From positions 32,001 to 96,000 of the forward strand of contig JAHJQN010000007.1 of NCBI GenBank assembly GCA_018819225.1: a stretch of 64,000 nucleotides of DNA. The letters are read 5' to 3'. This DNA comes from Candidatus Micrarchaeota archaeon. Its GTDB lineage: Archaea > Micrarchaeota > Micrarchaeia > Norongarragalinales > SBBD01. Positions 31,734 to 43,297 of this stretch are shown here, in pieces (the stretch's first letter is position 1; each line of letters opens with the position of its first letter). The position numbers and the translations under genes were made by a program. Below the pieces are notes generated by a model. That model was not told the origin of the DNA. It saw nothing but the letters and a program-made list of their open reading frames with translations, and searched no databases.

Positions 31734-32375
31734 TCAAGACGTATCCACCTCGTACGGATGGGAAGCCAGGCGCCGGATTTCTTTCGCCCGCTCCTTTCCG
31801 ATTCCTTCCGCGGATTGCAGTGTTTTTTCATCCGCCGTAAAAATACGTTGAATGGTGCCCAGTTTTCTTAAAAGCGATTTCGCGTTATGCGGGCCAATCG
31901 TAGGAATGGATTCGATCACGAATTGCTGCTGTTCGGAAACGGAAAAGGATTTCTTTTCGTAACGAAGCGCCAGCTCTTTTTTCCCGTTCGTTTTTTGAAG
32001 CGCGAGCACGTGAATGAATTCCGCGAGCTTTTCTTCAGAATCAAAATGAAAAATCGGAATGCGGAAATCCGTTGCTAACGCGATCTCCGCTCCCAAAAGT
32101 GCGCGGGGTTGCAGGCGACCGTATTTTGCGCCCACGATGGCCATAATAGGAGACTCGAATTGAGCGGCAAGATCTTTCGCCTGAAAAAAGAGGCGGCCGT
32201 CGATAATACTGGATTCGAAATCCGCCGCGGTCTTTCGCTCGAGGGCGACTTGGTCACTGATAATATAGTCGCCGATCTCCAGGCGCGTCGACTTCAAGCG
32301 AATGCCGAGTGAAAAGAGCTTTCGTGCCGTAGGGCTCTTGAGTTCGCGATCATCCATTAATATTTCCAGGTCCAT
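31734..32375 (-). CDS. Stand-alone ERCC4/XPF endonuclease + (HhH)2
   Basis: DDRE, GDY, ERKT..DF..SIIDGRL..Q, IPTIGP, EGIG; start moved to ATG 32375. Confidence 0.93.
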   Translation of the reverse strand: MDLEILMDDRELKSPTARKLFSLGIRLKSTRLEIGDYIISDQVALERKTAADFESSIIDGRLFFQAKDLAAQFESPIMAIVGAKYGRLQPRALLGAEIALATDFRIPIFHFDSEEKLAEFIHVLALQKTNGKKELALRYEKKSFSVSEQQQFVIESIPTIGPHNAKSLLRKLGTIQRIFTADEKTLQSAEGIGKERAKEIRRLASHPYEVDTS

Positions 32376-32419
32376 CCCAAAGAGCAACAAGGGGCAGGCT
32401 AAAAAAACGTGCGGTCGGG

Positions 32420-33175
32420 TCAAAGCCATTCCTGGAAAGTGATCGAGAGTTTTTCGATTTCCTGAAGAGTCAAGGAACGCACGCGTCGGGACGCCAACGG
32501 AAGTCGAGCGATACGCGTTTTCGCATCCGATGGAGAGGGGAAAGACAAGGACCGGCGGGAATGCCACAACGCATTTTTTACGGACTGGTTTTTATGCTGG
32601 AATAATAGTTGAACGAGCTGGGGATCGAGATGCGCCTTCGGGTTCTTTACGAGGTGGACGAATGCGGAATCCACGCGCGGAACGGGCCGGAAGGCGGTTC
32701 GGGGCACAATTCCCCATATCTCGACATCCGAAAGGCTTTGGGCCATCACGGATAGTCGCGCGTACTGAGGGGTGTCGGGGGAAGCGATCATGCGTAAAGC
32801 GAACTCCTTTTGAAGGCAGAGCAGAGCATCTTGAAACGTCGAGTTTAGTATGCGGAAAAGCAAGGGAGATGAGAGGTGGTATGGAAGGAAGCCGACAATG
32901 ACGGGAGCGTCCAAGGGGTGTATCCGGGCGTCCCCCATAATGACGTTTACGTTCTTCACGTCGCGCAGCCCGTTCGCGAGTTCGCGGGCCAAGCGCTCAT
33001 CCACTTCCAGAGCCGTTACCTCTTTAGCGTGTTCGGCGAGATAGCGCGTAATGACTCCCGTGCCCGCACCAATTTCGAGAACGCGTTTATCGGAAAAGTC
33101 GGCCAGATCTAAATACTCTTGAACGAACGAGATGTCGCGAAGGAAGACCTGGGAAAGGCGTTTTAATTGGCGCAT
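32420..33175 (-). CDS. ksgA: 16S rRNA adenine dimethyltransferase
   Basis: LSQVFL, VLEIGAGTG, LPYHLSS, QKEFA.R, Y.RLSV, F.PVP.VDS. Confidence 0.93.
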   Translation of the reverse strand: MRQLKRLSQVFLRDISFVQEYLDLADFSDKRVLEIGAGTGVITRYLAEHAKEVTALEVDERLARELANGLRDVKNVNVIMGDARIHPLDAPVIVGFLPYHLSSPLLFRILNSTFQDALLCLQKEFALRMIASPDTPQYARLSVMAQSLSDVEIWGIVPRTAFRPVPRVDSAFVHLVKNPKAHLDPQLVQLLFQHKNQSVKNALWHSRRSLSFPSPSDAKTRIARLPLASRRVRSLTLQEIEKLSITFQEWL

Positions 33176-34000: not shown

Positions 34001-35113
34001 CTACAACAGACTCAGAAGGCGTGCGAACTCCTCAGCGGGCATGAGATTGAGGGGTAGTACGTGCCAGACGTGCAGGTACGCGCCGAAAAGAAAGGGAACC
34101 AACGGGTATTTTACGAGTTTGTTCGACCAGATATCTTCAAATGCGATGAGCAACGCGAATGGAAACGCGGGAAGTAAATACCGGGCGACATCGTTATGGG
34201 AAAGAAATAAGGCCGGCAAATAGAGAATCAACGCGAATAGCACGAGATCGAACCGCCGTTGCTGATAGAGCCGTGCGATTCCTGCTCCATAAAGCAAGTA
34301 GAGCAGCATCCAATATTCTCCGACCGCAGCACCCCCATAACCAATAACCGCTTGAAACGGAAGCCATTGAAGAACAAAGCTGTTGACGGACGCGTAAACG
34401 AAGAAGTCGCCGTACACGAAGTGATAGTAGAGAAAGTGAAGGAAGAGTGCGAGTGGAATGAGCAGGTAAGGAAGCGCAGACCGCCATTGAACGCGGCGCT
34501 TCCATAAAAAGTAAAGGGCGTAAAACGCGAAAAGCGTGACGCCAAAGACGCGCGTGGTTGCCGCCAGAGCACCGAATGCTGCAGACAGCCAGTACTGATT
34601 TCTTTTAAAGAAATAAAAGGAAGCTAAAACCAAGAAAATGAAGGGGGCCTCGGTGGCGCCGACGCTGTGGTAAATGAGCCAGCGAACCGGAAAAAACACG
34701 AAGATCACGGAAAGAAACAAGGGATGTTTCGTGTACTTGAATTCCTTGACGAGGAAGTAGAAAGTGATTACGGAAAGAACAGCGAAGAAGAGCGTGGCGA
34801 GAAGCATCGCATCGAACGGAAACAACACGAAAGAGAATAGCCGTATGAACGCGGGGTAGAACACGAGATGCGCGGAATAGTAGTAGGGGGGGAGGGACCC
34901 GAATTCTAATAGCGGCGTAGACTCGTAGAGGGTTTGAGAAACGACTACGTAGAGCGGGCCGTCCCAATAACGGTATAGCACGTCCATGGAGGTAATGGAA
35001 ATCGAGGAGCTCAAGAAAGAGGTTTCGTTTAACCAAAACGGGAGGTAAACGAGGAGACTCGAAAGGATCATGAGTAGCGCGAGAAACAACGCGTTACGGT
35101 GATCAACATGCAT
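34001..35113 (-). CDS. GT-C glycosyltransferase (PIG-V/mannosyltransferase-like)
   Basis: YWDGPLY, FYP, TEAPF, TTR..G, ARY; multi-TM. Confidence 0.8.
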   Translation of the reverse strand: MHVDHRNALFLALLMILSSLLVYLPFWLNETSFLSSSISITSMDVLYRYWDGPLYVVVSQTLYESTPLLEFGSLPPYYYSAHLVFYPAFIRLFSFVLFPFDAMLLATLFFAVLSVITFYFLVKEFKYTKHPLFLSVIFVFFPVRWLIYHSVGATEAPFIFLVLASFYFFKRNQYWLSAAFGALAATTRVFGVTLFAFYALYFLWKRRVQWRSALPYLLIPLALFLHFLYYHFVYGDFFVYASVNSFVLQWLPFQAVIGYGGAAVGEYWMLLYLLYGAGIARLYQQRRFDLVLFALILYLPALFLSHNDVARYLLPAFPFALLIAFEDIWSNKLVKYPLVPFLFGAYLHVWHVLPLNLMPAEEFARLLSLL

Positions 35114-35197
35114 ATGAAAAAAAATATACCAGGGGCATAATAAAGGATAGGGAAAGCGCGCAAGGAACAACCGGAACCATTTAGGGATATGGAAAAA

Positions 35198-37246
35198 CTA
35201 AAGATATCGGGGGGTTGAAGTCAAACGCACGCGTTTTCCCTTCAAAATGGCGGTTAATTGAGCCGAGCGCAATCGTTGGGAGGCATTCGAAAGAGAATAT
35301 TCCGCGGTGAAGGAGCGTTCGACGAACGGGATGCACCATTGAAGCTGCATGCCGAGCACCGTATCGTCCATGGCACTCGGTGAGGGGACGCACGAGACAA
35401 CGGAAGGCGCAAAGTCTTCAATCATTAACGCGTGAAGCGGCTCGCGGGTTTTAAGATAAAGTGTCACGCGGGAATCTCGAACGGTTTTCGTAAAGTGAAT
35501 AGGGGGTTGGGGGAAACGATGGAGAGCGATGGCAAGCAATAGCAAGGGAATGAGTAAGAAATAGTGCCAAGAAAAGGAAAGAGCCAACAGACCCGAGACC
35601 CGCGAAGGAACGGAAGAGGGGTATGGAGAAGACGAGGGACGGGGAAGCACGCGGAACCAAAACGAATGGTTTGAATACTGGAGTTTCCAGTAACCGGGTT
35701 CGGAAAAGTTGAATGAACGAGATTCGGAGAGAAGAACGCGATACGGACGGCCAGACGGACTGGAAATATGAATCGGGGATTTGGGAGGAACGCCGTCATC
35801 CAGAAGAGTGATTGGGTATACCCCTAACGGAATAGAAGCCGGCATGAGAAAAATAACGAGGGGGACGCGGGCGTATTGGAGGGGAATGCTGGAGGGAGCC
35901 GCAGAGGGGAAAAAAGAGGGGGAGGGGAGAATGGTAGGAGTAGGAGAATTGACAACGGGAATTATCGGAGATGAGGAATAGGTGGAAGTTGAACTGGAAG
36001 AAGGGGGAATGGAGGGGGGAGGAGTTGGAGAAGGAATAGGAAGTTGTAGAAGAATGGGGAGGGAGTGATTCAGAAAGGAATTGTTTTCAGAAAAAGCGAA
36101 GACCGTGCAATTGAGAGCGAACGAAACGTTTTCGAGATTGAGGAAGAACGAGGCATTTGAATGCGAAGGACATGCAACAGAGGTATTGACACCCGAATGA
36201 TTAGTGCAGGAGAGCTGAAGGGAAAACGTATCGTCCACGAAACCAATGTTTTCAAGGGACGCGGAATAATCGAAAAATAAGCCGTCGAGTATAGGGTGCT
36301 TGGAAACATTGAGAATACGGGGATTCCCATGAAGAAAAAGAAAGGGAACCGCGGAGTCATTGAGTCTAGCGGATAAATGAGCGGAAACCCACGAGTCCGG
36401 TGGCGAAAAGTCGTAGTAATTAGAATAGTTTCCGGAACGCGTTTCAATCAATAGGTGATACGCCGCCGTTAATTGCGAGGTGGAAGCAACGGCGTCTGGA
36501 ATGGATAGGAAATAATGGGATTGGTAGTAGGCCCATGCACTCAAATAGTTTTGAAAATAGGTTGGAGAAAGCAAACCGAAGGTATCGGAAAGATTGATAA
36601 AGGAATGGTTCGGTTGAGAGGTATTGAGAGAGTAGTTGATGAGAGTGAGGGAATGAGAGGAGTCGTTGCAGGAGGAATGATTTACTGAAGCGGTACAAGA
36701 GGAATTGAGGGCATTGAGTTGAATGGAGAAATCGAACGATAGTAATTCAGAAAGATTGGAATAGTTAGTGGAAACAAAAGGACGGTAACGGTAACACCAA
36801 TCCTTCAGATAGTAATTCCCACAGTTCGGATTAAAATAATCGCATTCGTCACACCAAGAAAAATCACCGGGACCGGTAAACCCGGCTCGCTCGCATAGAT
36901 CCTGGCCGTAATAGTCCGTACAACCGTCCTCGATCACCAACGCAAGCCCGCCGGAAGCCGAATACAAGGGAAAGGAGGCATTAGAAATGAGATACGAGGC
37001 GTTCTGGGAAAGGGAGGTATTGAGAAGAAAAGGAGAGAGAAGGGACACTTCGCCGTGGGTAAGAAGAGATAGGTTAGAGGCGGGTATTTCGATTGAAGCG
37101 TTCGTTTGAATAAGGAATAGGTTGAAAGAAAGCGCGGGAACCCGCGAGAAATTCAGAAGCGAAACGTCAAGCGCAAAAGGAGAAGGGAAAAAAATGGTTA
37201 GTGACAGCACAACGCAAACAACGACACCGCGCATGGGGGAAGGCAC
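35198..37246 (-). CDS. Surface glycoprotein, Ser/Pro-rich, many N-x-S/T sequons, one TM near C-terminus
   Basis: Signal peptide, Cys-rich patch, S/P linker, TM helix, then a short cytoplasmic domain. Confidence 0.7.
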   Translation of the reverse strand: MPSPMRGVVVCVVLSLTIFFPSPFALDVSLLNFSRVPALSFNLFLIQTNASIEIPASNLSLLTHGEVSLLSPFLLNTSLSQNASYLISNASFPLYSASGGLALVIEDGCTDYYGQDLCERAGFTGPGDFSWCDECDYFNPNCGNYYLKDWCYRYRPFVSTNYSNLSELLSFDFSIQLNALNSSCTASVNHSSCNDSSHSLTLINYSLNTSQPNHSFINLSDTFGLLSPTYFQNYLSAWAYYQSHYFLSIPDAVASTSQLTAAYHLLIETRSGNYSNYYDFSPPDSWVSAHLSARLNDSAVPFLFLHGNPRILNVSKHPILDGLFFDYSASLENIGFVDDTFSLQLSCTNHSGVNTSVACPSHSNASFFLNLENVSFALNCTVFAFSENNSFLNHSLPILLQLPIPSPTPPPSIPPSSSSTSTYSSSPIIPVVNSPTPTILPSPSFFPSAAPSSIPLQYARVPLVIFLMPASIPLGVYPITLLDDGVPPKSPIHISSPSGRPYRVLLSESRSFNFSEPGYWKLQYSNHSFWFRVLPRPSSSPYPSSVPSRVSGLLALSFSWHYFLLIPLLLLAIALHRFPQPPIHFTKTVRDSRVTLYLKTREPLHALMIEDFAPSVVSCVPSPSAMDDTVLGMQLQWCIPFVERSFTAEYSLSNASQRLRSAQLTAILKGKRVRLTSTPRYL

Positions 37247-37547: not shown

Positions 37548-37654
37548 GGGCTCGTAGTCGAACGGTAAGACGCTGCCTTCGCAAGGCAGAGACTCCGGGT
37601 TCGATGCACAAAAAAGGCTTGAAAAAAGCCTGTGCGAAAATCCCGGCGAGTCCA
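37548..37654 (+). tRNA. tRNA-Ala(CGC) with 35-nt non-canonical intron at 59/60 (37606-37640)
   Basis: GGGCTCG/CGAGTCC with G3-U70; anticodon CGC at 37580-37582; BHB CCGGG/CCCGG, TTCG/CGAA, CACA/TGTG with ATG and AAT bulges; splicing restores TTCGATT. Confidence 0.93.
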
Positions 37655-37694: not shown

Positions 37695-38403
37695 CGCATC
37701 ACGTGATGCATTAGGGTTTGGTTTGAATGTACTATCTCCTCCAGAGGACCTAGATCTGGACGATCACGCTGCTGCCTTGCTTCGAGATAACAACTGGCTC
37801 TTGCGGCATCCTTGCCAACAACGAATCAATTTCCTTATACGACAAGCCACTTACATCAAGCCTCATAACAACCACCTACACGCATCGAAAGCGGATGAAA
37901 GGATATATGGGGTGTTGAGCACGTGATTTCCAGTAGTGCAACACATGATGCATAAATATTTTAGGTGGTTTAGCGTTTGATAATATAGATAAATAATTCG
38001 TTAAGATGACTGTGAAAAATCGGCGTTGTTGTTGTTTGTTTATTGTAAAAGTAGAATTATTATATTATTATAATGCGTCACGTGAAGCGTATGAATTTAT
38101 TATGAGTTAACATTCGTGCAATACCTGAGACAATGGGTGTTTTCTAGTGCTTCAGGTGATGCACCAATATTAAATTCAGTGCTTCACCTGTTGCGTGTAT
38201 GTTAAATCAAATGCTTCACGTGCTGCAGTTTGTTTTCATAATCCTTCAATTTACCCGATACATAGAGATGGTTGCCCGATCATTATGGTGTTAGGATAGC
38301 TAAATAGTTCAGATAGGATTATGGGTTTGTTTATGTATGTATTTGGTTTTTGTTTCTCCAAGTCACCTAAACAACTATTTACTTTAGTGCGTCACGTGTG
38401 GCA
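37695..38403. repeat. Array of ~9 parS-like 16-bp palindromes (TGC-N2-CACGTG-N2-GCA) in an AT-rich intergenic region; candidate origin/centromere-like locus
   Basis: Copies start at 37695, 37915, 37937, 38074, 38117 (degenerate), 38148, 38180, 38212 and 38388; AT-rich core 37953-38073. The repeat is directly visible; its function is inferred. Confidence 0.8.
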
Positions 38404-40059
38404 CTAGAAGTCCAATATATTCTTCTGATTCCCCACAATCAACTCCTCTTGCTCTTCGACTCCAATCTGCTCTTTATTCCCTATACTTTTCAACTCCTTT
38501 CTCAACTCATGCAATGTACTTCTCATCTTCTTCTCCCGTTGTTTCGAAATCCAGAAGAACGCCTCATCCTTACTTTTTCGCGTGATCAATACTATGGTGT
38601 TTCCTTCCCGAACCCTACCCGTTCTACCACGACGTTGTATCGCCCGAATTTCTGACGGCACGGCCTCAAAAAAGACCACGAGATCAACGGACGGAACATC
38701 AATTCCTTCCTCCGCCACCGACGTTGCCACCAACACATTGAACGATTTCGATTTAAACTCTTGCAACACCTGCGCCTGTTTTTTTTGGTTCATTCCCTCC
38801 TTACTTTTCCCAACAAACGCCTTTGCTTTCACGCCCGCAAATTGATTCAATTCCTCCACAATTTTCGTAACTGTATTGCGGTAGTGCGCGAACACGATAA
38901 CACTCTTTCCTTCCTGCACCGCATCCGATACCACTCCTTTCAACCTCCGGAACTTCGGGTGTTCCACTCCTTGCTTCCTCAATTCCTCGCACTTGATTCC
39001 AATTAATTTCCACCTAAAGTCCTGAAGCAATCCCTTCACTGCCTTGCTTTTCTGTTTCCTCTTCCCCATTTCCTGCATGAACCCCCACAATGCGTGAATA
39101 CCTTCTGTTTCCAACAAATCCAGCGCGTGGCTCACATTCATGGCTCTCGCTTGAACACTCAGCGCCCGATAACCTTCTGGTCGCATCGTAGACAGCTCCA
39201 ACGCCTTCCTCCGCGCATCCAACAACGCTCGCTTGTGCCGCTTTAAATCCGTGCTGTCCACGACCTCCAATTCCAACAACTCCGCTAACGCATCCTTCAA
39301 CAACTCCTCCAACACGCTCTTAATATCCATGAACGCCTTCGGCAACTCCACAAAAATCCAATCCAGTTTGACGGGCTTCGCGTATCCCTGCACATCCTTA
39401 TCGTTCTCATCCCGCACTTCAATATTCGCGATATTCAAATTCGTACAAATCTCTTGAATGACTTCTCGTTTGGAAGACGGGCTCGCGGTCAACCCCAAAA
39501 TAAACGCATGCTGTTTCGCTGCCTCTTTCGCTAGAAACGCGTACGAGTGCTCTTTCACCGCCCGATGCACTTCGTCAAACACAACGAGTCTGAACGCCTC
39601 CATTGAAACCCGTCCCGCCAACAAATCATATTCAACTGTTTGCGGTGTCGCACACACGATTTCCAAGATCGGGTTCGCCCACAACCTCTCTCTCAATGCC
39701 GGTTCCGTCTCCCCACTCAACACCATCACTTCCGTTGCCTCTTCCTTTCCCCAGTTAATCCGCGTTCCTTCAAACTCCAGCCATTCACGCAATCGCTGGC
39801 TTTGCTGAAGAGCCAGTGGCTTCGTAGGCGTCAAAAACAATATCTTTTTCTTTTTCCCTAAGCTCGAACGCTCCTCTTTCAAAAACTTGGCAATCACAAA
39901 CGCGGCCACATACGTTTTCCCTAACGCCGTCGGCATGATCACTAACGAGTTTCCATTCCTCAACACGCGCTCCGCCATCTCCACCTGGTATCCTCTCAAC
40001 TCTACTTGACCCGGCTTCAACGCCAGTTGCTTCAAAAAATCCGCGTATTTTTCCTTCAT
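38404..40059 (-). CDS. hef: Hef/FANCM-type SF2 helicase lacking the nuclease domain
   Basis: RGYQ, MPTALGKT, PTKPL, DEVH, GLTASP, HPK, ATSVAEEGIDVP, QRRGRTGR; ends QKNILDF (PIP-like). Confidence 0.93.
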   Translation of the reverse strand: MKEKYADFLKQLALKPGQVELRGYQVEMAERVLRNGNSLVIMPTALGKTYVAAFVIAKFLKEERSSLGKKKKILFLTPTKPLALQQSQRLREWLEFEGTRINWGKEEATEVMVLSGETEPALRERLWANPILEIVCATPQTVEYDLLAGRVSMEAFRLVVFDEVHRAVKEHSYAFLAKEAAKQHAFILGLTASPSSKREVIQEICTNLNIANIEVRDENDKDVQGYAKPVKLDWIFVELPKAFMDIKSVLEELLKDALAELLELEVVDSTDLKRHKRALLDARRKALELSTMRPEGYRALSVQARAMNVSHALDLLETEGIHALWGFMQEMGKRKQKSKAVKGLLQDFRWKLIGIKCEELRKQGVEHPKFRRLKGVVSDAVQEGKSVIVFAHYRNTVTKIVEELNQFAGVKAKAFVGKSKEGMNQKKQAQVLQEFKSKSFNVLVATSVAEEGIDVPSVDLVVFFEAVPSEIRAIQRRGRTGRVREGNTIVLITRKSKDEAFFWISKQREKKMRSTLHELRKELKSIGNKEQIGVEEQEELIVGNQKNILDF

Positions 40060-40398: not shown

Positions 40399-41172
40399 TT
40401 ATTCTTCCCGCAGGTCGCCGTAGATAATCCGGTGCACCCAATCCATGACACCGAATTTCTCCTTATAGTCCACGCCCATAATTTCCGCCGCAATTTTCTT
40501 GAAACCAATGGCCGCCGGACTCTTGGGGAACGCGGTTACCACCGGCTGCGCCATCAGCGCGGCAGTCGGAACGGCGGGATCCTCGGGAATCTTGCGAATC
40601 GGGTGATCTCCGATAATATCCCGAATCTCTTCCTCGTTCGGCTCGCCTGCATACCGTCCCACCCGGTTCAAAACAACGGCCGCAACCTCTACTCCGATGC
40701 TTTCCGCCATTTGAATCGTTTTATATGACGCGGACAGTGCCGGCAGTTCCGGATTGGTTACCACGAACATGTGGTCCGCGCTTCTCGCCGCCGAAATGAA
40801 TTCGGCTCCCAAACCCGGCGCCGAATCAATAATGAGCGTGGTTTTGCGCTTCTTCAACTGCTTCAATACTCTCGTAAAATCATCTTGCGTAATTCCTCCC
40901 AACGAATTCAGATTGATGTTCGCGGGGATGACTTTCAACCCGCTTTCATGCTCGTACGTCGCATCCTCCACACTCGACTTCCCCCGAATCACGTCATTCA
41001 ATGTATTCGTTTCGAACGGAACCGAGAAATACAGTGAAATATCCGGCACCGGCAAATTCCCGTCGACTATCGTCACGTCGCCTCCAAATTGCGATAAAGC
41101 GGTTCCCAGGTTAATGACGGTTTGCGTCTTTCCCACGCCTCCTTTACCCGAACTGACGATGAATGAAGCCAT
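40399..41172 (-). CDS. minD: MinD/ParA-family ATPase (archaeal MinD-like)
   Basis: Deviant Walker A GKGGVGKT, IIDSAPG, VVTNPE, VLNR, IPED, P.SPAA; amphipathic C-terminus. Confidence 0.9.
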   Translation of the reverse strand: MASFIVSSGKGGVGKTQTVINLGTALSQFGGDVTIVDGNLPVPDISLYFSVPFETNTLNDVIRGKSSVEDATYEHESGLKVIPANINLNSLGGITQDDFTRVLKQLKKRKTTLIIDSAPGLGAEFISAARSADHMFVVTNPELPALSASYKTIQMAESIGVEVAAVVLNRVGRYAGEPNEEEIRDIIGDHPIRKIPEDPAVPTAALMAQPVVTAFPKSPAAIGFKKIAAEIMGVDYKEKFGVMDWVHRIIYGDLREE

Positions 41173-41554: not shown

Positions 41555-43297
41555 TTACCTTCCCCTGCTCTTCATTTTAATTTTCTTCTTGCGCTTTCCG
41601 TGGAAGAACCACGCGCTCGCCACCGCAACCGCTCCCACGGCCGCGAGCATGAACGCGAAACTAAAGCTTTTCTTCCCGTTCTTGATTTCCGCGATTTCCG
41701 CTCGCGCTTGTTGGATCGCATTCACGGCTTCCTGCGGGTTGCTGGCAGCCATCGAACGCGTTCGCGCGGCGAGTTGCTCGTACGGCGTCTTCTCTTCCAT
41801 GTTTCCTAGTCCCTGAATTTCTTGTTCGAGCTCGTTTTGTACTGTTGAAGCCAACACGCTCCATCCGCCTGCTCCTTGTTGCATGTACTTCTTCGGCGTG
41901 GTCACCATCAACGGGCTTCCGCCGCTCGATGGTTTTCGGCAATTGAATTCCGCGATATCGAAGTTGTTCGTCTCATCCGATTCTTCGATTATCTGGGTGG
42001 TGTCGGCGGTTGCATTGACATAATACGTTCCTACTCCCGGACACCGGAACGCGTACGTATTCAATTCCGCGCCGACTAAGGGTTCTAGTGGGGGGATCTC
42101 CCAGAAATAAAATTCCAACTGTTGAGTTCCCTGGCCTAATGCCGACATGGTGAAACTCGTATCAGAAGCACCTTCCCCGTTATTTCGGGTGTTAATGCTA
42201 ATTGTTATGGTTTCTCCCACGTACGGATTGCTTTTACTAATACCGACATACGCCACCAAGTCGGGAAGCAGTTCCTCGTAAGAATAGACTCCCGTCCAAG
42301 CATACGCTTCTTGACCAAACGCGCCTGGGAATACGTTGCCTGTTGATACGTTTACGCCTTCCAGAATTGTCCACTTATATTCCTCGTTAACGACAACTCC
42401 GACGTACTGGCCTTGCGGGTTGTATACTTGATACATCGCACTTTCCCCGGATCCATTTCCTCCGGATCCGCTAATATCCACCAAAACCACTTGATAGTCG
42501 TTATCTGCAAATACTTGGTCTTGTATGAACAACTGGTACCAGCCATCTCCATAATGCGTATGATTTTGTCCCGAAGAGCACTCTACGCTTCCGTAAACGA
42601 AGTTGTTCGTTTCGTCGGATTCATTGACTTCAGTCCATGCATCTACCGTTACATTCACTCCGTACGTTCCCTCTTCGAGACAGGTAAAGTTATATGAGTT
42701 GTTTTGCCCTGCTCCCGGATTCAATGACGGGACGCTAAACAAGTGGGGGTGCCCATTTTGTTCAACGGAAAGCGTGTGGCTGGCTCCCGAAGCCCCTTCT
42801 CCGAGATTGCGGGTTAAAACATATGCGATAACCGTTTCTCCCACTATTGGGTTTGATTTACTAAACCCTAAATCCGGCACCAAGTCCGCCAGAGGTGCTC
42901 CTTGCGGGCCCGTGCAATTCAACGCAACTTGTCGATAATTATTTTGTTCTTGTGATTCTACCACTTCATTGAAGATATCCGCTTTAGCGCCAATCCAGAC
43001 GATTCCGGTTTGGTTACACGTATACGTTGAAGTATTCGTATTGTTTTGCCCGCTTATCAGTCCGTTGATTCGGAAATCTTGAATGGTCCCAAAATTCGAA
43101 TAGAGCCGCGTCGTGGATTGGCTCGCCCACGTGGTCCCGTTGTTTTCCGTTGTTACCCAGATGGTAACGGGTTCTCCAACCGGCGCCTCGTTCATGCTTA
43201 GACGCATATCCGAGACCACTAAATCCGGTTCCGCGCTGACGGATGCCGTTAACATCGTCATAATTAGGGTTCCTACAAACAGGCTCAACAAACGCAT
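41555..43297 (-). CDS. Surface protein with three CARDB domains and C-terminal TM anchor
   Basis: Three [PA]DLV...N.G...V.ES.E.NN units; signal peptide; TM + basic tail; AGGTGA SD. Confidence 0.88.
   Translation of the reverse strand: MRLLSLFVGTLIMTMLTASVSAEPDLVVSDMRLSMNEAPVGEPVTIWVTTENNGTTWASQSTTRLYSNFGTIQDFRINGLISGQNNTNTSTYTCNQTGIVWIGAKADIFNEVVESQEQNNYRQVALNCTGPQGAPLADLVPDLGFSKSNPIVGETVIAYVLTRNLGEGASGASHTLSVEQNGHPHLFSVPSLNPGAGQNNSYNFTCLEEGTYGVNVTVDAWTEVNESDETNNFVYGSVECSSGQNHTHYGDGWYQLFIQDQVFADNDYQVVLVDISGSGGNGSGESAMYQVYNPQGQYVGVVVNEEYKWTILEGVNVSTGNVFPGAFGQEAYAWTGVYSYEELLPDLVAYVGISKSNPYVGETITISINTRNNGEGASDTSFTMSALGQGTQQLEFYFWEIPPLEPLVGAELNTYAFRCPGVGTYYVNATADTTQIIEESDETNNFDIAEFNCRKPSSGGSPLMVTTPKKYMQQGAGGWSVLASTVQNELEQEIQGLGNMEEKTPYEQLAARTRSMAASNPQEAVNAIQQARAEIAEIKNGKKSFSFAFMLAAVGAVAVASAWFFHGKRKKKIKMKSRGR

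Follow-up and report, generated by a model that had tools for sequence, protein, structure and literature searches.

The 64,000-bp stretch analyzed here (the window) comes from the genome of a Candidatus Micrarchaeota archaeon (GenBank assembly GCA_018819225.1, contig JAHJQN010000007.1, positions 32,001–96,000) and contains a 709-bp array of nine 16-bp palindromes, or boxes, that surround an AT-rich core between the genes for tRNA-Ala(CGC) and for the helicase half of Hef. The array sits on a sharp switch in strand composition in two genera, and very probably marks one of the replication poles of the chromosome. Judging from sequence, we give an even chance to the more specific proposal that it is the core of the main chromosomal origin in the family of the host (f1), an origin that would lack origin recognition box (ORB) repeats and be unlinked to the initiator gene. 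Archaeal origins are normally sought beside orc1 by way of their ORBs, and to our knowledge the replication origins of the DPANN archaea are essentially unmapped. A literature search found no description of the box motif or of any Micrarchaeota origin.

The palindrome array and its conservation

Coordinates of the form 37xxx–38xxx refer to the window; in the host assembly (G000; 1.373 Mb in 8 contigs, 51% GC, 90% complete) the array occupies positions 69695–70403 of contig C6. All nine 16-mers listed in a preliminary description of the window were present where it had placed them. Seven are strong copies of TGCnTCACGTGAnGCA, with at most three mismatches (starting at 37695, 37937, 38074, 38148, 38180, 38212 and 38388), and two are weak, the one at 38117 having four mismatches and the one at 37915 having six, with its CACGTGA core kept. 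At up to three mismatches the window held 11 matches compared to 2.57 expected, a number reached in none of 100 shuffles, and 7 of the 11 fell inside the array. Across the whole genome there were 18 sites with up to two mismatches (about four expected by our own arithmetic), six of them in the array, which also accounted for five of the nine sites with up to one. The array is thus real and far beyond chance.

The spacings of 22, 43, 31, 32 and 32 bp between neighboring boxes were as previously given, and all five lie within 0.1 turn of a multiple of 10.5 bp, a coincidence with a chance of about 2.5 × 10−4 by our own arithmetic. Positions 4–5 and 12–13 in the arms of the boxes vary without compensation, which points to a constraint on double-stranded DNA read by a symmetric protein, rather than on a hairpin; a hairpin or terminator was rejected on this ground. 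A non-coding RNA was also rejected, as a search of Rfam at E values up to 1 returned only tRNA. The dyad symmetry and the spacing support the earlier suggestion of a platform on which a dimeric protein binds, with helical phasing and an AT-rich core in the middle.

Box 1 (37695–37710, one mismatch) lies between the 3′ ends of the tRNA-Ala gene and of a small gene encoding 38 amino acids, and forms part of a longer inverted repeat with a T-run after it; in the related genome G001, the small gene is likewise followed by an equivalent box. Boxes 2 (37915–37930, weak) and 3 (37937–37952), which are 22 bp apart and 49–71 bp upstream of the start codon of the small gene, form the left border of the AT-rich core (37953–38073), a candidate DNA-unwinding element. 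Its right border is formed by boxes 4 (38074–38089) and 5 (38117–38132, weak). These are followed by three boxes (38148–38227) in 32-bp units that consist of a 16-bp box, 6 nt, TTAAAT and 4 nt; the shared TTAAAT noted in the preliminary description was found at spacer positions 7–12 of both units (38170–38175 and 38202–38207). After a spacer of about 160 bp, box 9 (38388–38403) abuts the stop codon of the Hef helicase gene, and a box at the end of hef is also found in the relatives G002 and G005. The AT-rich character reported for the center of the array was confirmed, with 28–29% GC over 37950–38099 against 51% for the genome, and the 477-bp gap at 37927–38403 had the lowest GC content (34%) among the 40 largest listed of 54 gaps of at least 300 bp free of open reading frames (ORFs). 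The stretch had been described as non-coding, which holds for most of it but not for 37750–37866, occupied by the conserved small gene.

A DNA search in 40 relatives first found the small gene, and the flanks of these matches then showed the same palindromes. Besides the host, arrays were found in three genera of f1, namely g2 (G001 and G004), g3 (G002) and g4 (G005). At least four genera thus carry the array, invariably with tRNA-Ala(CGC) as a neighbor, and it adjoins hef wherever the contig reaches that far (G001, G002 and G005), in agreement with the expectation that it would be kept between these two genes in relatives. The order of elements in G002 is that of G000, with a box at the end of hef, about 190 bp, three boxes 32 bp apart and one further box, after which the DNA is AT-rich for about 110 bp and continues with two boxes and the small gene. 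The 32-bp unit has TTAAAT at an identical offset in G002 and nearly so in G005, and an AT-rich core flanked by boxes is also present in G002, G005 and G001. In G005, the array (C1:88354–88780) consists of six boxes at 30% GC between the convergent 3′ ends of tRNA-Ala and hef, and about 60 kb on each side of it are collinear with G000, with GatE and GatD on the left. The palindrome (CACGTG) was the sole motif common to the five arrays compared. At up to one mismatch, the box was found in all 11 genomes of f1 (1–21 sites each; none with a reversed-pattern control) and was essentially absent from 57 genomes in ten other families. G021, of family f2, was rejected as a carrier: its four sites with up to one mismatch form no cluster, and at up to two mismatches it had eight sites against six for the control.

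Outside the arrays, boxes are dispersed as singles or pairs on most contigs, each f1 genome having 8–13 sites at up to two mismatches and G003 as many as 21 at up to one; in G005, dispersed sites span at least 260 kb of one contig. Five of the 16 sites outside the array lie in ORF-free DNA, which makes up 7–8% of the genome by the same crude measure. The dispersed boxes look more like scattered initiator or organizer sites than like a promoter regulon, and they fit the motif of an initiator box or of an organizer. The preliminary description had expected clustering at one locus and counted scatter across the genome against its proposal; with about half of the strong sites dispersed, such scatter is present in part, and the expectation is weakened. 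One perfect box (G000:C7:193801–193816) falls within a 349-aa ORF, shortly before the part that encodes its C-terminal DUF7343 winged-helix domain, where it may point to an internal start or to autoregulation of a DNA-binding protein. A pair of strong boxes separated by 90 bp (G000:C1:209995 and 210085) is found in a 668-bp gap that precedes an S-layer-like gene, where the GC skew has a weak local peak (quantile 0.87–0.95).

Strand composition at the array

The maxima of cumulative skew in contig C6 of G000 (173 kb) both fall within the array, that of GC skew at 70352 and that of AT skew at 69956. In window coordinates, the switch in strand composition spans 37956–38352, with the AT-skew maximum at the former position and the GC-skew maximum at the latter. 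When the skew to the left was contrasted with that to the right, the array came out at the top of the whole genome on each of three scales (quantile 0.999), with a contrast about twice that of any other peak or trough. The genome of G005, which belongs to another genus, was put together from 20-kb stretches (1.266 Mb, 7 contigs). In its contig C1 (168 kb) the GC-skew maximum is at 88290, only 64 bp from the syntenic array. By our own arithmetic, the chance of each of these coincidences is about 0.3–0.4%. An origin signal, one of the two possibilities raised in the preliminary description, fits this position on a strand-composition switch in two genera.

At four-fold degenerate sites, the sign of the skew was the same in genes on the plus and minus strands in both G000 and G005. 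In the left arm of G000:C6, the GC skew was +0.09 in both sets of genes (plus/minus) and the AT skew +0.34/+0.32; in the right arm, the corresponding values were −0.17/−0.27 and −0.24/−0.26. Given this agreement in sign, and with the genes nearly evenly divided between the strands in both genomes (52–53% vs. 47–48%), the asymmetry is mutational, of the replication type, and not a by-product of gene direction. The even division makes gene orientation uninformative as a test of polarity; in the two arms of G005:C1 only, 64% of the genes point away from the array (our own sum). In G016, a genome from another family that has a canonical Orc1, 600 kb sampled from the 1.30-Mb main contig showed no replication-type skew, the skew following gene orientation instead.

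The AT skew in G000 is strong (±0.25–0.34 at four-fold sites) and has two poles, a sharp peak at the array and a flat trough at about 100–140 kb of contig C2. On contigs C1 and C7 it is monotonic, and the amplitudes add up to two roughly equal replichores by our own sums. The GC skew of G005 follows this two-pole pattern as well, its flat trough lying at about 60–120 kb of contig C2 in that genome. The pole opposite the array is therefore a flat zone of 40–60 kb, part of which is homologous between G000 and G005, and which has been rearranged between them. The minima within it fall on an ordinary 155-bp gap between divergent promoters in G000 and on a tRNA cluster in G005.

The initiator gene and the function of the array

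The sole orc1/cdc6 gene of G000 (C2:57839–59086, locus L021) is on a different contig from the array, as is that of G005 (at C2:221.9 kb, with the array on C1). In neither genome does orc1 lie at a skew pole, and no repeat array or AT-rich element was found upstream of it. An origin beside orc1 was therefore rejected, there being no repeat array, AT-rich element or skew switch at that place. A scan of the whole genome for ORBs with up to two mismatches gave scattered matches only, with no cluster and none in the array, and the boxes contain neither the TCCAGTGGAAA core nor the G-string, consistent with the previous statement that the motif is unlike the archaeal ORB. There were no ORBs upstream of orc1 in G016 either.

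The sole Orc1 of each f1 genome scored 25–42 bits against the Cdc6_C model, over positions 13–86 only, whereas in every genome outside f1 with a match, Orc1 scored 51–80 bits over the whole of this winged-helix model. The G000 protein is orthologous, with 39–47% identity, to a second, divergent paralogue of a few other families, but only 31–32% identical to their canonical Orc1; the divergent paralogue is the second copy in G012, G030, G022, G042 and G015. Family f1 has thus lost the canonical Orc1 and kept only the paralogue with a divergent winged helix. It is the only family in the order that has no canonical Orc1, and the box motif is likewise limited to f1. This shared distribution amounts to a single evolutionary event, which is a correlation and not proof. 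A divergent sole Orc1 together with boxes found only in f1 nevertheless fits a change of origin type, and makes this protein the first candidate for the binder of the boxes.

ParB was rejected because no ParB_N domain (PF02195) was found in the 90% complete G000 genome, so that the ParB-like partition factor proposed in the preliminary description was not borne out. That neither orc1/cdc6 nor parB adjoins the array was correct, and to this can be added a gene for an ATPase 2 kb away (40399–41172). The ATPase is an archaeal MinD (TIGR01969, 205 bits), scoring 43.6 bits against the ParA partition model, which has a cut-off of 180, and its gene is not found at the array locus in G005. No SegAB- or AspA-like operon abuts the array at the G000 or G005 loci.

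The product of the small gene (37750–37866, minus strand, with a Shine–Dalgarno sequence) was also considered. The gene is present in 11 of the 68 genomes of the order, and its product matched no Pfam or NCBIfam family. An AlphaFold model with a predicted local distance difference test (pLDDT) score of 91 has a beta-alpha-beta-beta fold, for which a structural search returned no match with an E value below 0.8. The gene was not detectable anywhere in the G005 genome (best E value 0.024), although the array is kept there, and other families of the order carry the gene without boxes. The array is therefore independent of the small gene, and its product was rejected as the binder, having no family, no structural match and no detectable gene in G005.

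Taking these observations together, we favor a non-ORB origin, on the grounds of the position and anatomy of the locus, the form of the skew and the shared distribution of the boxes and the divergent Orc1. The array is an AT-rich core flanked by repeated boxes in a genome with no ORB cluster elsewhere, and the switch at the array is sharp, whereas the opposite pole is broad and rearranged and has no origin-like structure at its minima. The same contrast is described for the single-origin Thermococcales, with a sharp peak at oriC and a broad terminus that is readily rearranged (PMC2958812). In G000, moreover, the strand that runs away from the array is T-rich in either direction. A T-rich leading strand is the usual sign in most bacteria and at human origins. 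In such an origin, a dimeric protein would bind the boxes on one face of the helix and would bend or wrap the DNA at the TTAAAT spacers, melting the AT-rich core, from which two forks would then depart in opposite directions. The protein would most likely be the divergent winged-helix paralogue that is the only Orc1/Cdc6 of f1, and the dispersed single boxes might be secondary or regulatory sites for it, like the DnaA boxes of bacteria.

Several observations weigh against this interpretation. In both genomes the G-rich strand points to the array, which is the GC polarity of a bacterial terminus, and G005 has no AT-skew switch at the array. As an origin, the array would put the ribosomal-protein cluster of both genomes and the rRNA operon on the lagging strand, and the ribosomal-protein cluster near the terminus. 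Palindromic boxes are atypical for Orc1, which is the leading candidate binder. The origin predicted for Forterrea, another DPANN archaeon, from a bacterial-type cumulative GC skew lies next to cdc6 (PMC5905446), and in an assembly of 8 contigs with 90% completeness, a gap might conceal a further origin. In addition, GC and AT skew are coupled differently in different sets of G000 contigs, which neither an origin nor a terminus explains: the A-rich strand, as judged at four-fold sites, is rich in G on C6, C5 and C8, but rich in C on C7, C4, C1 and C2. An origin and a terminus at the array would consequently each leave one skew component non-canonical. The two skews mark different domain structures in G000, and G005 shows GC skew only. 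The sign of the GC skew is not decisive, since inverted polarity has been published for the haloarchaea, where it occurs at experimentally mapped origins (PMC1868953).

The main rival is a fixed terminus of bidirectional replication, in which some nine palindromes bound by a dimeric protein would form a non-polar barrier that fixes the meeting point of the two forks, and the origin would lie in the broad opposite pole, closer to orc1 and the ribosomal-protein cluster. We consider this unlikely, although GC-skew polarity and the orientation of the ribosomal operons favor it. The sign of the GC skew at the array is that of bacterial and thermophilic archaeal termini in both genomes (by the rule in PMC1868953 and PMC7111523). 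The ribosomal-protein cluster, 10–25 kb from the broad pole in G000 and 80–140 kb from it in G005, is encoded on the G-rich strand in both genomes and oriented away from that pole, and the rRNA operon of G000 is on the G-rich, A-rich strand. The orc1 gene, on another contig than the array, is 40–160 kb from the broad pole and nearer to it than the array is. The conserved neighbor Hef is an enzyme that processes stalled forks. Nonetheless, we know of no sequence-specific terminus in archaea, and the Ter sites known so far, which lack symmetry and form two groups of opposite orientation, are unlike these palindromes. Nor does a barrier need an AT-rich core, while the broad pole has nothing resembling an origin at its minima, and a broad, rearranged origin with a sharp terminus would be the reverse of the arrangement in single-origin archaea (PMC2958812). 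A terminus at the array would also give G000 a leading strand that is A-rich throughout and, for about 65% of the genome, rich in A plus C. Finally, no dif-like site was found at the array. A search for the 11-6-11 repeats characteristic of dif, conserved between G000 and G005, found none at either pole, and matches to the Thermococcales dif core did not exceed those of the control.

Less probable again is that the array lies in the origin or terminus region as the site of a family-specific organizer or segregation factor rather than of the initiator, a functional analogue of parS/ParB or matS/MatP built from an unrelated protein; the initiator would then have its own sites, as yet unrecognized. 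The 8-bp core of the box, TCACGTGA, is identical to that of parS, with consistent differences at positions 3 and 14, a MinD gene is close by in G000, and the dispersed singles and pairs are mostly not in promoters. The partner proteins speak against it, however, with no ParB_N, no syntenic MinD in G005 and no abutting SegAB- or AspA-like operon; in addition, the five arrays share no second motif that could serve an initiator, and the dispersed sites in G005 extend beyond a single domain. There is only a slim chance that the array is an operator cluster through which a family-specific transcription factor controls the small gene, in which case its coincidence with the skew maximum would be non-causal. 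One or two boxes do lie 50–90 bp upstream of the start of the small gene, beside a TATA-like run, in G000, G001, G002 and G004, and other boxes are near genes, as with the one inside the DUF7343 helix-turn-helix gene at C7:193801. Yet the six-box array of G005 lies between convergent 3′ ends without a detectable small gene, other families keep that gene without boxes, and the array coincides with the skew maximum in two genera rather than one. A promoter would also need far less than nine phased boxes spread over 700 bp around an AT-rich core. All of these proposals apart from the operator cluster place the array at a replication pole.

Compared with known systems, the array has the candidate unwinding core with flanking boxes and the sharp skew switch of an archaeal origin, without the ORB sequence and without an adjacent orc1. 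Like the ORB-type oriC of Pyrococcus abyssi, oriC1 of Saccharolobus and the origin of Methanothermobacter with its 13-bp repeats, it combines an AT-rich core and repeated dyad-type elements within a long non-coding gap where the skew switches sharply, and the opposite pole is broad and rearranged, as the terminus is in the single-origin pattern. It differs from these in its fully symmetric 16-bp box, in the location of orc1 away from the switch, in its inverted GC polarity and in the divergent winged helix of the only Orc1 of the host. Haloferax volcanii oriC1 and other haloarchaeal origins lie at peaks of G/C disparity and have a C-rich leading strand (Norais 2007, PMC1868953). The array, as an origin, would share this polarity, and in the haloarchaea, too, not every orc gene marks an origin; haloarchaeal origins, in contrast, carry ORB repeats and usually lie beside an orc gene. 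The parS sites of bacteria resemble the array in being 16-bp palindromes with the same core that form a dense cluster with dispersed copies at a replication pole, but the array has C/G at positions 3/14 where parS has T/A, and it belongs to an archaeon with neither ParB nor a conserved ParA partner. With Tus–Ter, RTP–Ter and dif-centered switches, the array has in common a sharp skew switch at which G-rich strands converge on a cluster of (here putative) protein sites; Ter sites, however, are polar as well as asymmetric, unlike tight palindromes around an AT-rich core, and we know of nothing comparable to the bacterial fork traps in archaea. The DnaA boxes of bacterial oriC likewise form a dense cluster beside an unwinding element, with scattered single sites elsewhere, but they are asymmetric 9-mers for a monomeric AAA+ protein, a different protein in another domain of life.

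In f1, the usual approach through orc1 and ORBs fails, and the only origin-like structure lies elsewhere and has a different, symmetric box, which goes along with the loss of canonical Orc1 and the retention of a divergent paralogue. If it is an origin, the array would provide a defined DNA element and a candidate protein with which to test a change in initiator specificity, and would be a case of inverted GC skew outside the haloarchaea. If it is a terminus, it would be the first site-specific termination system, or fork trap, in archaea, built from palindromes and located beside the fork-repair helicase Hef. Either way, it would supply a coordinate origin for peak-to-trough estimates of growth rate and for checks of assemblies in Micrarchaeota genomes.

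Flanking genes and other repeat-rich gaps

The tRNA-Ala(CGC) gene to the left of the array (37548–37654, plus strand) has a non-canonical intron in the T-arm region; Rfam matched positions 37548–37603, and the rest was read by eye. In G005 (L023:10208–10308) the intron is in the D-loop, an equally odd place, and ARAGORN missed the gene in both genomes. Further to the left are two long ORFs of 389 and 682 aa (34001–37246, minus strand), pyrimidine-rich on the coding strand and with hardly any match to known families. The G005 locus lacks them; in G000 they are the cause of the extreme local skew immediately to the left of the array.

On the right, the gene for the helicase half of Hef (38404–40059, minus strand) matched positions 4–524 of the 781-position Hef model with 537 bits. 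Hef is split in this genome, the other part being an ERCC4/XPF nuclease with an HhH2 domain (31734–32567, minus strand). In G000 the array lies between the two genes, which are 6 kb apart, while synteny suggests that both are on one side of it in G005.

ORF-free gaps of 250 bp or more number 88 in G000, and three of them rival the array in repeat excess, namely a contig end and two relics of tRNA hairpin cassettes. These two, which were examined and set aside as tRNA-end or hairpin-cassette relics, contain duplicated tRNA ends with hairpins of about 30 bp (C2:200702–201332 and 331817–332094). The most AT-rich windows of 100–150 bp on C3 were also dismissed, being ordinary promoters with a different palindrome. 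These promoter gaps (42950–43000, 82600–82640 and 83400–83450), in which the GC content falls to 11% per 100 bp, share the sequence TACGA-N3-TCGTA, which is probably the site of another regulator.

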